Source: a virus | Taxonomy: Duplodnaviria > Caudoviricetes | IMG/VR virus record: IMGVR_UViG_3300020045_008761 | Location: 1-35,490 of that record | Direction: 5' to 3' (one strand) | Length of the DNA: 35,490 bases | In this document: piece by piece, positions 2,379 to 12,563 of the stretch | Layout of the letters: each line of letters starts with the position of its first letter | Numbering within the stretch: the stretch's first letter is position 1 | Program-made: the position numbers and the translations under genes | Notes under the pieces: generated by a model | What the model saw: the letters and a program-made list of their open reading frames with translations, nothing else | What the model was told of the DNA's origin: nothing | The model's database searches: none

Positions 2379-2720
2379 TTAATTACTAATTACTTCTTCT
2401 AAGGGGACTATTACGCCATCCCAATCTCTTGGCTCCCTCCCACCTTTCGCAGCATTGCATTTAGGATGCATGAGTTGGCAATTTTCAATATCATTCGTGC
2501 CACCTCGCCAAATTGGGATTTTGTGGTCAATGTCTACATCAATATTTTTCCGTTTGACCCTCGCAATTTTCATACTTTTTCTCATCTTCATCCATTGGAC
2601 ATATTTTTTCAACCCTTCAATGTCTAATTTCTTGCCACACCAAGGACAAGTATCATTCATAAAAGGCAGAATTTTGTCTAAGAACCTATAACCGTTTTTT
2701 CTTAATTTTCTCTTTTTCAT
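2379..2720 (-). CDS. HNH endonuclease (McrA-like, Zn-binding)
   Basis: CPWC...DIDHKIPIWRGGTNDIENCQLMHPKCNAAKG. Start placed at ATG 2720 because the longer ORF extension is a hairpin. Confidence 0.88.
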   Translation of the reverse strand: MKKRKLRKNGYRFLDKILPFMNDTCPWCGKKLDIEGLKKYVQWMKMRKSMKIARVKRKNIDVDIDHKIPIWRGGTNDIENCQLMHPKCNAAKGGREPRDWDGVIVPLEEVISN

Positions 2721-2736
2721 GTTTACCTTTTCCCTG

Positions 2737-2838
2737 GTATCAGGAGCTAGTGATGGGCGGGTGCGTTCGGGTTGCAGTTGTCCCAGGAAAGCCCTAGAAC
2801 GTTCAACCCCATACCCGACCATCAACAACCCCCGATAC
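2737..2838 (-). ncRNA. About 100-nt rod-like RNA hairpin in intergenic DNA
   Basis: Long GC-rich imperfect inverted repeat; many mismatches become G-U pairs on the minus-strand RNA. Confidence 0.6.
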
Positions 2839-6022: not shown

Positions 6023-6535
6023 TTACTTTAATAATTTATTTGGAAGAGCAAAATCACCAAAAAGTTTTTTTGTAGCTACATCATACGCTTTCCCTGCTGT
6101 TTTACTGTCACTAAAAACCCCAAGTGAAATTTTTTTACCCCCAACAGTTATTCTTGCCACCCATTTTTTTAGTCCTTTGTGCCACCCAACACCTTTAAAC
6201 CCAGATGAATTATCTTTTCTTCTTAGGGCGTTTCTGTTATTCAACATTGAATTACAAATTCTTAAATTTGATTTCCTATTATCGAGTCCGTTATGGTTTA
6301 TGTGATCAACCATAACCTTAGGATCAGAAAGTCCTAATACAACCCTATGCATAAGAATTGATTTTGTTTTTCTAATTACACCCTTTAATCTTATCGATCG
6401 TATTACATAGTCGGTATTTAAACTTTTATGTAAACACCATTTAAATTTATTAAGTCGACTAAAATCATCATCATCAACTATGGCATATTTTTGCTGTGTT
6501 AATTTAATTTTTTTCATCATTTTTTGGTGGGTCAT
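6023..6535 (-). CDS. HNH endonuclease with C-terminal AP2 DNA-binding domain
   Basis: MHRVVLG...VDHINHNGLDNRKSNLRIC...N, then SSGFKGVGWHK...KWVARI...LGVF...AGKAYD. Confidence 0.95.
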   Translation of the reverse strand: MTHQKMMKKIKLTQQKYAIVDDDDFSRLNKFKWCLHKSLNTDYVIRSIRLKGVIRKTKSILMHRVVLGLSDPKVMVDHINHNGLDNRKSNLRICNSMLNNRNALRRKDNSSGFKGVGWHKGLKKWVARITVGGKKISLGVFSDSKTAGKAYDVATKKLFGDFALPNKLLK

Positions 6536-8898: not shown

Positions 8899-9186
8899 TC
8901 AGATACCCTTTTTAAGTATATAATACTTACTAGATTTTTTATACTGTTCATAACATTCACGAGAGCAAAAAACACTTCTTATTTTTTTATAAGTCTGTAT
9001 AAAAACCCTATCACACTCCTTGCAAATAAAAGTTCTTTCATTTAGGGGCCGTAATTCTACAGGAATTTTCCTGTTTAAGGTGACGCCGGTCGAAAGGGTA
9101 CAGATAGGACACTTAGAAGCATATTTTGAAATTATAAAATCGCAGTGAGGACAGATAATGTTTCGGTAAGAATCTTTCATTTTCAT
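8899..9186 (-). CDS. Zinc-finger protein
   Basis: CPHC, CPIC, CKEC and FCSRECY motifs. Confidence 0.7.
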   Translation of the reverse strand: MKMKDSYRNIICPHCDFIISKYASKCPICTLSTGVTLNRKIPVELRPLNERTFICKECDRVFIQTYKKIRSVFCSRECYEQYKKSSKYYILKKGI

Positions 9187-9194
9187 AAAAGTAT

Positions 9195-10136
9195 TTAGTG
9201 TTTTGGTATGAAAGATAAAATATGGGCGACCACATCCACATTGAAAGCATTGCCGAGCATTTTGTATCGCTGTGTGTTTGAAACTCCTTCGGTGTAATTA
9301 TCTGGAAGTCCTTGCAATCGTTCACATTCCACTGGCGTTAGTTTTCGGACAAAATCTTTTACAGCATATAGTCCAGTTTTAGCACCACGCCCACCGCCAA
9401 GAGCAGAAAGAGCAGTTGATTTTGCTTCAATGGAATACACTCTATCCCCCTGCCCCCCTTTTCCTATTTTTGCAATTCTTACTGGTTTTGTAATTACTTG
9501 TTGGAATGTTGATGAGCGACTTGTGCCACACCCCGTTCCTAACGTATAGGATTTATCCCACAAAACCTTATTATTGTAGTCGGAATAAACTCCATTGTAT
9601 TCGTGGTCTAGCTGTAAAATATCTTTTAGAACAATCTCTTTATCATCAGGCAACTTCACATTCGGTATGTTCGTCCAAAACAATCTCTTACGATTTTGAG
9701 CTGATACAAGTGAGGCGTTTATCATTATCGGTTCTACCCCGAGAGTTTCGGTGATGACTTGCTTGGCTTCCTTTGGCATTGAGTTCACATTCTCAAGTAT
9801 GAAGTATTTTGGTTTGACTTCTTTTAAGATACGGACATACTCCCAGAATAATCCCGAGCGTTCGCCATCTAGTCCTTTACGGTCTTTCTTGGCGATTGAG
9901 AGATCTTGGCAAGGAGAGCCACCGATAAGCAAGTCAATATTCCTTGTCTCTTCAAAATTTAGAGGTTTAAAATCTACTACGCTTCCAACATGGACTATGT
10001 AGGGATAGTTTTTTTGGCTTATTTGAATTGCATACTTGTCTATCTCACTGGCATAATATTCATCCGCCTGAATACCAGCCTTTTCTAAAGCAACTCTGGC
10101 ACACGATATACCGTCAAATAAAGATAAAATTTTCAT
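9195..10136 (-). CDS. DNA (cytosine-5)-methyltransferase
   Basis: LSLFDG, GGSPCQDLS, ENV, QNRKRLFW, RKLTPVECERLQG, YKMLGN motifs. Confidence 0.96.
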   Translation of the reverse strand: MKILSLFDGISCARVALEKAGIQADEYYASEIDKYAIQISQKNYPYIVHVGSVVDFKPLNFEETRNIDLLIGGSPCQDLSIAKKDRKGLDGERSGLFWEYVRILKEVKPKYFILENVNSMPKEAKQVITETLGVEPIMINASLVSAQNRKRLFWTNIPNVKLPDDKEIVLKDILQLDHEYNGVYSDYNNKVLWDKSYTLGTGCGTSRSSTFQQVITKPVRIAKIGKGGQGDRVYSIEAKSTALSALGGGRGAKTGLYAVKDFVRKLTPVECERLQGLPDNYTEGVSNTQRYKMLGNAFNVDVVAHILSFIPKH

Positions 10137-10152
10137 AAAAGTATTTTAACAT

Positions 10153-11793
10153 TTAAAATAATGGGGTTGTAATTTCCGTTAATCTAGCTTCGATTATTGG
10201 TATGTATTCCGGTGTCAGTTCTATGCCGATGTATTGAAAGCCATTTTGTTTAGCGGCAACTAATGTAGTGCCTGAACCTGCAAATGGGTCTAATACTATT
10301 CGACCTTTAGGAGTTACCATTTTTATTAGATATTCCATAAGGGCGATGGGTTTAACTGTGGGGTGGTGGTTGGTTCTAAGCCTGTTATGGTTCGTAGTAC
10401 TTGTGCCATCTTGATTACTAAACTCACCACCAGACATTTTGCTAGCGTTCTTCTCCTCCAACCCCTCACACCCCATATTCCTCTCACTCTTACTTGCCTT
10501 TGCTTGATAGATTATTGATTTGAAGAAACGAGAGGCATTGCCTGAGTCGTAGTTTATCCTTTCTCCCGTTAAGTGCTTATTCCCTCCATTAAATACAGTT
10601 GTTGTACCACTGCTTTTTGCTGGAAAACCACCTTTACCAGTTTCAGGAAAAAACTCTCTTACTTCTTCACTGTTGTCGTGGATTAAATTAGCTGGAAAGC
10701 GACCAGTTCTTTCATTTCCAGTTTCTACTGTTTCGTAGTGTCCATAAATTCCACCATCACCAGTATTTCCTTTTCCGTTTGAGTGAGTTGTGATTACTTC
10801 ACTACTTTCCACCCTACTCTCATCTATATTTATTCCACCTGTTCCATACTTCAAGACATTTTCTGCTACTGTCTTTTCTGCTAGTGGTTTACGAGCCATA
10901 CAGATAGGTTCGTGTGATGGTTTTAACGCCGTGCCAAAACCTCCTGTGCCTCGTATTGCTTGTGCATCGCATTGTTCGCAAACAACATTAAGTTCTCCAA
11001 GCGATTGTCCAATGGCTTGTGATTTATATGATGAACACACTCCGTTCTCGTCAATAACCTCCCAAGATGTTTCGCCATTATTAGTCTGTGTTCCATAACA
11101 TACCCATCTTTTCTTGCCATTAACAAAAAGTCCTGTGGGCATCTCACATATTTGACACTTACAGTATAATTCCCCTTGCGGTGTCGGTAAGTCGCCCCAC
11201 CTTTCCAAGCAGGATTGTCTTTGCCTTTCGGAAAACGGAATGATTTTGCTTTCGCTTCTGGGGTGTGTAAATATTTTGTGTTGTGTTCCTTTGTCCAAGT
11301 CCTCCAACAAATCCGACAAATCCCTCCTGTCGTTATTTTCTTTTTGAGCCAAGGTCTTAGATATAATGGCTTTCCACACATCTTGCATTTGTGATTGGGT
11401 TTTCTGTTGGGTTGTTTCATACTCTCCCATATTACCATATCCATACTTCTTTAACAAGTGTTTTTGTATGTTTAGAGATTTCGGAAATCCGCTCCCGTAT
11501 ATATATTCAATCATATCTCTCACTTCAAAACCTGCGTCTTCAATAGCTACTGCCATTCGGTGGTAGGTTCTAGTTCCTGAAAAAGCTAGTAAGTGTCCTC
11601 CTGGCTTTAATACCCTTAGACACTCGCCCCACATATCTTTATTGTTAGCGATGCCTGTGTTATCCCAAGACTTACCCATAAAGCCTAGTTCGTATGGTGG
11701 ATCAGTTACTATACTATCAACCGAGTTTTCAGGTAAAATTTTTAAAACCTCTAAACAATCCCCTTGTATTACTTTATTTATATACTGATCCAT
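10153..11793 (-). CDS. DNA N6-adenine/N4-cytosine methyltransferase (beta class) with a large insertion
   Basis: DPPY, GSGFPKS, GTALKPSHEPI, GRFPAN, HPTVKP, LDPFAGSGTT. Confidence 0.96.
   Translation of the reverse strand: MDQYINKVIQGDCLEVLKILPENSVDSIVTDPPYELGFMGKSWDNTGIANNKDMWGECLRVLKPGGHLLAFSGTRTYHRMAVAIEDAGFEVRDMIEYIYGSGFPKSLNIQKHLLKKYGYGNMGEYETTQQKTQSQMQDVWKAIISKTLAQKENNDRRDLSDLLEDLDKGTQHKIFTHPRSESKIIPFSERQRQSCLERWGDLPTPQGELYCKCQICEMPTGLFVNGKKRWVCYGTQTNNGETSWEVIDENGVCSSYKSQAIGQSLGELNVVCEQCDAQAIRGTGGFGTALKPSHEPICMARKPLAEKTVAENVLKYGTGGINIDESRVESSEVITTHSNGKGNTGDGGIYGHYETVETGNERTGRFPANLIHDNSEEVREFFPETGKGGFPAKSSGTTTVFNGGNKHLTGERINYDSGNASRFFKSIIYQAKASKSERNMGCEGLEEKNASKMSGGEFSNQDGTSTTNHNRLRTNHHPTVKPIALMEYLIKMVTPKGRIVLDPFAGSGTTLVAAKQNGFQYIGIELTPEYIPIIEARLTEITTPLF
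10923..11444 (-). CDS. HNH homing endonuclease nested in the +1 frame of the methyltransferase
   Basis: CKMC/CRIC, GKDNPAWKGG, YVMEHRLIMAKHLGR...VHHINHKPLDNRLENL; start may be 11420. Confidence 0.88.
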   Translation of the reverse strand: MDMVIWESMKQPNRKPNHKCKMCGKPLYLRPWLKKKITTGGICRICWRTWTKEHNTKYLHTPEAKAKSFRFPKGKDNPAWKGGATYRHRKGNYTVSVKYVRCPQDFLLMARKDGYVMEHRLIMAKHLGRLLTRTECVHHINHKPLDNRLENLMLFANNAMHKQYEAQEVLARR

Positions 11794-11875: not shown

Positions 11876-11926
11876 ACCATGCCTCTCTCTCCCCGAAAGA
11901 GGTCAAGGATTTATGCGGCTAGTATA

Positions 11927-12292
11927 TCACGCAACTCGTTTGGTCTGGTGCTTTTTGGCACGGACTACTCTTTCGAGTAGAGCAAGGACTTCCTCAGCAG
12001 TAGCATTCTTAAAAATCCGATGCCACGCCTCGTGCTTCTCAATGTCGATGAGGAGCAGGTTGTTGAGGGACTTATCACCCCCTCGGGATTTTGGCAAGAG
12101 AAAGTGATGCCAGTTCCGGCCTGCGAAACGCCGACGACTTTTTTTGGCTCGCCGCCGCCACCTGTTCTTTTTTCGCCAGGTGCCGCGAAAGACATCCATT
12201 ATGTACAATGTACTCTCCGAAGTTGACGACCCGTTCGTACCTTGAGGTGCGAATGTGGCATTCTCGGCAGTACCTCTCGTTGCCTTTTTCAT
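11927..12292 (-). CDS. Small HNH-motif nuclease-like protein (true start possibly 12199)
   Basis: WHHFLLPKSRGGDKSLNNLLLIDIEKHEAWHRIF. Confidence 0.75.
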   Translation of the reverse strand: MKKATRGTAENATFAPQGTNGSSTSESTLYIMDVFRGTWRKKNRWRRRAKKSRRRFAGRNWHHFLLPKSRGGDKSLNNLLLIDIEKHEAWHRIFKNATAEEVLALLERVVRAKKHQTKRVA

Positions 12293-12299
12293 AGTTCAT
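12075..12299 (-). CDS. Possible zinc-finger protein overlapping the HNH ORF
   Basis: YCRECH...VHNGCL (CxxC...HxxC); GAGGAGG directly upstream. Confidence 0.5.
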   Translation of the reverse strand: MNYEKGNERYCRECHIRTSRYERVVNFGEYIVHNGCLSRHLAKKEQVAAASQKKSSAFRRPELASLSLAKIPRG

Positions 12300-12308
12300 T
12301 GAACCTCC

Positions 12309-12563
12309 TCAATCAATCTTGATGTGTGCTTGACGTGCGAACTCCTGGTCAAATACGGTTACAGCGTTTACAGCCATAGGTGCAGGTGGCACCATTTGAG
12401 TCATAAGCTCAAGTGGTAGCATAGATTGACACTTGCGACCACAAGAACACTCCCACTCCACATAGAGTTGGTAGTCTGATGTGACGGACACGAAGTCAAC
12501 AGCGTACACCACCCTTTTGCAAGGGCATGTATATTGAACCTTGCGATAGGCGAACGGTATCAT
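12309..12563 (-). CDS. Cys-rich (zinc-ribbon-like) protein
   Basis: CPC...CSCGRKC; GAGGAGG 9 nt before ATG 12563. Confidence 0.65.
   Translation of the reverse strand: MIPFAYRKVQYTCPCKRVVYAVDFVSVTSDYQLYVEWECSCGRKCQSMLPLELMTQMVPPAPMAVNAVTVFDQEFARQAHIKID

Follow-up and report, generated by a model that had tools for sequence, protein, structure and literature searches.

A probable splicing-free homing endonuclease gene hidden in the +1 frame of a phage DNA methyltransferase

A phage DNA methyltransferase gene conceals, in its +1 frame, a gene for an HNH endonuclease, which, judging from sequence comparisons, is likely to be a homing element that is maintained by selection, is carried in a loop of the methyltransferase and most likely dispenses with splicing. 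The window, that is, the whole stretch of DNA analysed here, is a single contig of 35,490 bases with phage genes, among them those for a head protein and a GroEL homolog (positions 41-1618) assigned with PHROGs. The principle of an HNH hidden in a methylase has already been published: the ShiLan domain is an out-of-frame HNH in a phage methylase, with no stop in the host frame and neither intron nor intein (Arsenault 2025, PMC11855218). That work was computational only and offered leaderless initiation as speculation (PMC11855218), and the cases set out in the available text of the two reports come from a handful of mycobacteriophages (Gosselin 2023, PMC9957025; Arsenault 2025, PMC11855218). 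The published cases settle neither the mode of expression of the hidden nuclease nor the question of selection on the open frame. New with respect to the literature found are the site, the frame, the HNH lineage, the scale and the predicted promoter of the present element; its HNH family provides selection figures together with an exact predicted promoter and start, and the arrangement is widespread in uncultured phages. Hidden HNHs are easily missed in annotation because the host open reading frame (ORF) looks intact. If splicing-free homing is true, it would be a further route for a selfish nuclease to reside inside a gene, beside introns, inteins and split genes.

The methyltransferase and the gene within its loop

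The host gene, the hidden gene and their landmarks are listed in the order of the host reading frame.

10153..11793, minus strand: beta-class N6/N4 DNA methyltransferase (host gene), 546 aa, Pfam N6_N4_Mtase E 3e-36, frame open across the insert
11692..11703, minus strand: methyltransferase catalytic motif DPPY, aa 31-34, read from the sequence
11476..11496, minus strand: conserved GSGFPKS motif, aa 100-106, the 5' border; a sister intein class enters between G100 and S101
10936..11466, minus strand: presumed mobile insert in the host frame, approximately Q110-F286 (borders approximate), replacing the native variable loop, pLDDT 32-59
10923..11420, minus strand: hidden HNH endonuclease gene in the +1 frame of the methyltransferase, 165 aa, CxxC motifs towards the N terminus and the HNH domain at the C terminus
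10980..11090, minus strand: HNH_3 domain, core HH..N..N.L, with H131, N139, N143 and H153 invariant across 48 aligned relatives
10969..10980, minus strand: host-frame CxxC, C272-C275, whose usual partner, a CxC at the 5' end of the insert, is absent from the window copy
10918..10935, minus strand: conserved GTALKP motif, aa 287-292, the 3' border, which gives the HNH stop; the published ShiLan insert sits directly after GTALK
10270..10290, minus strand: methyltransferase SAM-binding motif DPFAGSG, aa 502-508

The methyltransferase has the layout of the beta class of PF01555, with DPPY near the N terminus and FxGxG near the C terminus, and DPFAGSG is part of its product only if the insert itself is translated through. 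In the AlphaFold model of the methyltransferase, the core reaches a pLDDT of 84-96 (residues 1-30, 51-70 and 481-540), strands at residues 90-98 and 294-301 flank the low-scoring insert, and the native region 326-472 is also of low confidence; the model predicts that the host-frame segment is carried by the methylase as a loose loop.

The preliminary description had placed an HNH gene in the +1 frame of the methyltransferase, between GSGFPKS and GTALKP, and both ORFs were recovered there on the minus strand. The nested ORF 10923-11444 matches Pfam HNH_3 (E 6e-8) and 10 PHROG HNH families; the longest +1 or +2 open run within 25 other window genes is 91 codons. The start at 11444 from which this ORF had been taken was rejected: in the close relatives L002 and L122 an in-frame stop directly precedes the third ATG, at 11420, which is therefore the likely start and gives a product of 165 aa. 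The stop had been attributed to the Leu-Lys codons of the methyltransferase, and the TAA (10925-10923) is indeed read out of TTA AAA. This stop is common to L002, L006, L007, L009, L021, L029 and L060, while the HNH ends earlier in L001 and L024 and later in L003, L004 and L035. The predicted HNH model has a mean pLDDT of 79, mostly above 90 in the nuclease half, and PDB sequence searches with the HNH gave no meaningful match to solved structures.

DNA identity of the window to L122 rises near 11463 and drops near 10953. The native loop of empty alleles spans 18-74 aa (median 63), compared with 184 aa in the window by the same measure; since the insert replaces this loop, the net gain is about 120 aa, a correction to the earlier figure of about 170 aa of alternative-frame sequence in the variable region. 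Similarly, both frames are open for about 520 nt, as had been described, but the insert, at 42% GC, is only moderately AT-rich. Some empty alleles carry 120-136 aa at the loop position; such inserts, helix-turn-helix-like by eye, were seen in P0032, P0034, P0054, P0059 and P0109, and further inserts, of 234-306 aa, occupy the same loop in P0068, P0108 and P0114.

The position of the insert corresponds to the loop after the 'W-x-K' strand of related solved methylases (alignment to 5hek up to residue 108), a loop with a putative DNA-contact role in such enzymes. This position, and the dispensability of orphan phage methylases (PMC11855218), would favour an explanation in which a genuine, mobile HNH comes at the cost of methylase activity, which the insert would abolish, the open frame serving only to avoid polarity or stalled translation. 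We consider this improbable: empty alleles tolerate the loop lengths given above, a DPPY-like motif is retained in 54 of 55 hosts, the gene that follows the window methyltransferase has its own promoter-like motif, and host-frame stops are absent despite deep divergence (see below). A strict SAM motif within the same ORF is found in only 39 of the 48 complete intein-less hosts, the misses being variant motifs or earlier-ending genes. The methylase ORFs of L007, L030, L031, L037, L045, L173 and L179 stop before the SAM-binding motif with a similar tail, which suggests a second natural split point in this methylase family.

Among 55 parsed relatives, the host-frame CxC/CxxC pair is complete in 26, entirely missing in 19, and represented by CxxC only in 9 and by CxC only in 1 (co-occurrence, Fisher p 5e-7, with kin that are not independent), and in the split-gene relatives L008 and L176 the two motifs lie on separate chains. 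A CxC/CxxC zinc clasp was considered for the window copy and rejected, the CxC being missing. Cys-forming sites have T in 57/59 cases vs 186/310 elsewhere, but several Trp sites likewise show an invariant T ahead of G. The host-frame insert peptide matched no Pfam family at a useful score and no Atlas family or fold.

Selection on the two frames and tests for splicing

In the window, where 17.1 stops would be expected, none of the 35 stop-forming contexts ends in T (log10 P -11.4), compared with 39 of the 71 contexts that cannot form a stop; the two free-standing HNH genes of the window (2379-2828 and 6023-6535, one of them with AP2) have T in 13/28 and 29/44 stop-forming contexts. Across 133 distinct nested copies, T is found in 0/3927 stop-forming contexts vs 3370/9261 other contexts, and 5 distinct non-nested copies have it in 60/162 stop-forming contexts. 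The +1 frame is cheap because a host stop arises only where a T-ending HNH codon is followed by AA, AG or GA; every such codon has a synonym with C in third position, and choosing it keeps the host frame open without any change in the nuclease. The exceptions are two intein copies, L207 and L211, in which the frame breaks down immediately downstream of the HNH, and L222, which is truncated or broken in both frames.

In 15 pairs among 6 close copies, dN/dS is 0.12-0.40 in the HNH frame and 0.66-1.31 in the host frame, and dS in the HNH is 0.39-1.03 vs 1.1 to saturated in the flanks; dual coding may itself restrain synonymous change and so account for part of the low HNH value. Together with the stop avoidance, the substitution patterns indicate that amino-acid selection acts on the nuclease frame only, that the host-frame peptide drifts and that the host frame is nevertheless kept open by selection. 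The intact HNH residues are under purifying selection, as expected of a homing endonuclease. Stop depletion and two-frame dN/dS had been proposed as checks on dual coding, with frequent stops in homologs as the adverse outcome; the host stops are absent, no +1 nested copy carries stops across the HNH, the HNH is under purifying selection, and dual coding appears to be maintained by selection. The accompanying suggestion that the overlap creates new protein sequence fared less well, the host-frame peptide being approximately neutral and of low model confidence.

The preliminary description had noticed neither intein termini nor intron flanks, and the searches agree: an Rfam search returned no intron match, RNA folding revealed no excess (z 0.05), and a Hint domain search of the insert gave no match, while Hint/intein models do match weakly in the intein copies L065 and L028. 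No ribozyme core of group I or II introns was recognised, and the insert has no precise exon junction, because the native loop is replaced. HNH genes are frequent group I intron cargo (PMC11855218), and an unrecognised intron might remove the segment from the RNA, or the ribosome might skip it; given these negative searches, and the fact that a removed segment would need no open host frame, we regard this as highly unlikely. Removal at the protein level as an atypical intein is brought to mind by the 90 of 174 related loci (see below) in which this HNH family resides in true inteins, inserted some ten codons further upstream, but the window insert does not start with Cys or Ser, does not end in Asn-Ser and has no Hint match, and its host frame drifts, which leaves this explanation barely credible. 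As to the splicing-free dual coding put forward in the preliminary description, the maintenance of both frames by selection is borne out, we infer that splicing plays no part, and the principle had been published before.

Distribution, mobility and relation to known systems

Relatives of the window HNH are encoded by 142 viral and 542 metagenome stretches. Relatives were chosen by HNH likeness alone (the best 80 of the 142 viral, the best 80 of the 542 metagenome and all 14 genome stretches), which gave 174 loci. In 165 of these an uninterrupted methylase frame encloses the HNH in +1 (74 without an intein at the window site, 90 inside inteins and 1 at another site); the remaining nine comprise 6 antisense between split halves, 2 in a fractured gene and 1 free-standing. 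True inteins at YG/SGFPKS with the same HNH family in +1 include L012, L014, L015, L025, L044, L052, L065, L118 and others. The HNH is antisense between the halves of a split methylase in L008:1254-3422, L176:834-2903 and L189:145-1327, where the first half ends in WCxC and the second, in L008 and L176, begins with LCPCCGKP. In L018:2084-3635 the methylase is fractured at the same loop, and the HNH is a separate gene between the halves with a promoter-like motif 6 nt before its ATG. A tree covering 40 of 140 rows needs 3 changes between intein and intein-less states, with L028 and L079 falling among intein-less copies; these two copies hint at repeated switching between the two states, but one clade for the 20 intein-less vs the 20 intein rows is not rejected (p-AU 0.416).

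By its flanks the window methyltransferase is closest to empty alleles, at 90% identity, while methylases with the same insert reach 62-89%. A single clade of 8 carriers vs 30 empty alleles is rejected (p-AU 0.0012), and a clade of the four closest carriers alone is not (p-AU 0.166). The alignment with insertion-free homologs that had been suggested earlier accordingly places empty methylases nearest and shows the patchy distribution that homing predicts; homing is the simplest reading of this sequence pattern. Given the mosaic make-up of the methylases, the insert can also be spread by ordinary recombination, and both conserved borders are intact in occupied alleles, which leaves the avoidance of self-cutting unaccounted for and counts against homing. 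In the proposed course of events, a selfish HNH element would reside in the +1 frame of a stop-free methyltransferase stretch and would likely never be spliced out; the nuclease would be made and, during co-infection, would cut or nick an empty allele near the site, the insert would then be copied into that allele by recombination, and the lengthened methylase would still work.

The nuclease and the methylase are inseparable within the gene, and a second, C5, methylase (9195-10136) adjoins directly downstream, which could point to a domesticated unit resembling restriction-modification, with the methylase in the protective role and the nested nuclease directed at unmethylated DNA of competitors or of the host. 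Such a unit is quite unlikely, given that most close methylases lack the nuclease, that one HNH lineage occurs in methylases as divergent as the above flank identities imply, and that the same HNH family occupies the endonuclease slot of inteins. The cutting of unmethylated alleles raised in the preliminary description likewise finds no support in the present data.

The homing element favoured here resembles the ShiLan domain in its methylase family, its out-of-frame HNH with zinc-finger motifs, its stop-free host frame without intron or intein, and its patchy, disjunct distribution with an insert less diverged than its hosts; the window HNH is 39% identical over 95 aa to that of the ShiLan phage Mantra. 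The differences are equally clear. In Mantra gp64, a clean 202-aa insert, of a length that agrees with the available text of PMC9957025, sits directly after GTALK with the HNH in +2, the third frame, and the first 11 insert residues nearly duplicate the downstream flank, whereas the window element lies between GFPK and GTALK, uses +1, replaces the loop and has no duplication. The window element works like a ShiLan domain but is not a ShiLan domain in the strict sense.

A GenBank-annotated nested +1 HNH at the same site and in the same methylase family is present in Mycobacterium phage StellaBean (gp97/gp98, PP978831.1), where 0/39 stop-forming codons of gp98 end in T; it differs in its unrelated HNH lineage (best BLAST E 0.009) and in a GAGG before the start. 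A literature search on the StellaBean name found nothing relevant. Non-canonical inteins with out-of-frame or antisense homing endonucleases have been described (Gosselin 2025, bioRxiv 10.1101/2025.01.02.630785); the available part of that preprint reports frame-3 EndoVII as well as LAGLIDADG/VSR on the opposite strand, all in hosts that are not methylases. What these inteins share with the window is that the endonuclease gene overlaps a host frame which stays open. The inteins at YG/SGFPKS, which house the sister lineage of the window HNH, are of this type, and the window copy is without a splicing domain. In the Aeh1 nrdA-a/mobE/nrdA-b system, as far as the accessible text of its description goes, the gene is fragmented and the host protein consists of two pieces joined through tails (Crona 2011, PMC3045599); it resembles the window in the splicing-free tolerance of an in-gene endonuclease, but the window host stays one reading frame, and it is the relatives L018, L008, L176 and L189 that split the methylase in the nrdA/mobE manner.

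The methylase family is a hot spot for hidden HNHs. A second hidden HNH was seen at other sites, in +1, +2 or antisense frames, in 17 of 133 host ORFs (L002:2576-2731, antisense; L104, L139, L017, L027, L028, L030, L033, L034, L036, L064, L070, L076, L152, L161, L179 and L203). Unannotated hidden HNHs at the ShiLan site (+2) of the methylase occur in L096 and in Cylindrospermopsis phage Cr-LKS3 (L119, g59, OM373202.1), a cultured cyanophage and possible bench system. Mycobacterium phage Bombitas gp109 (L121) has a +2 HNH ORF inside a C5 methylase gene with the host frame open across it, and in L215:293-2461 a different methylase has, ahead of DPFAG, a distant HNH in +1 with Cys-rich host-frame ends on either side. 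Near-identical inserts are present in the public-run contigs X1, X2 and X4 (contigs of four runs); in 40 of 173 rows, 25 of the 33 listed differences within the HNH fall at its third codon positions.

A predicted promoter within the methylase codons

Two predicted promoter elements precede the hidden gene inside the methyltransferase coding sequence.

11452..11457, minus strand: predicted -35 hexamer TTGTTA (TTG being the host Leu113 codon), conserved across relatives
11429..11437, minus strand: predicted extended -10, TG-G-TAATAT, separated by 17 nt from the -35 and by 8 nt from the HNH ATG downstream

The window promoter matches 8 of 12 consensus bases and falls below the threshold of a plain consensus scan. 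The full motif precedes the ATG in 18/58 intein-less and 14/75 intein copies (L171 being counted under its former class label), compared with 1 match in 34,789 nt of downstream methylase sequence. Selection on the host amino acids alone retained 19 of 59 copies; in these, Leu is encoded by TTG in 18/18 cases (background 63/313), Gly by GGT in 19/19 (background 178/548), and the codon before Gly ends in T in 19/19. A DNA pattern consisting of FPK and the promoter, without the ATG and without the HNH, was searched against IMG/VR and gave 17 matches, of which 14 lie in methylases, 3 outside any methylase and none in an empty allele. All 14 methylase matches have the HNH-opening ATG exactly 8 nt after the -10 (12 HNHs are complete, 1 is cut by the contig end and 1 is truncated); 5 of these methylases (L217, L221, L224, L225 and L226) are on contigs already among the relatives examined.

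Transcripts from sigma-70 promoters start 6-8 nt after the -10, so that the HNH message would have a leader of only 0-2 nt. Where the promoter is missing, the ATG is preceded by GGAG or GAGG in some copies, but in many by none of these elements. The sequence evidence makes it probable that transcription of the hidden HNH begins at an internal promoter of its own and yields a leaderless mRNA. Literature searches, with supplements and most subscription journals outside their scope, found no paper on an internal promoter for such nested HNHs, and on HNHs nested in methylases they yielded the ShiLan paper alone as relevant. None of the public sequencing runs contains more than 26% of the words, and RNA run X20 holds a 226-nt piece, which is no proof of transcription; the public runs offered no sign of expression.

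A bolder joint reading is possible, if somewhat doubtful: the element may be a cassette complete in itself, which places a functional sigma-70 promoter within the codons of the methylase and expresses its nuclease from a leaderless mRNA, one HNH family having taken up, within about ten codons of one methylase family, four architectures (a dual-coded loop, dual coding inside an intein, a fractured gene, and an antisense position between split halves). If true, these architectures would form a living series from a free endonuclease through a harmless in-gene passenger to the homing domain of an intein.

Several inteins at YG/SGFPKS have a promoter-like TGnTATAAT within the codons of the splicing domain, 7-8 nt before an ATG. 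Elsewhere in the window, a small Cys-rich ORF (8899-9186) resembles part of an HNH family. GC climbs to about 50% at 11900-12500, where the ORF 11927-12292 has an HNH-like motif by eye and no Pfam or PHROG match; its start is the sole one with a Shine-Dalgarno match (own pattern) among the 41 window starts checked.
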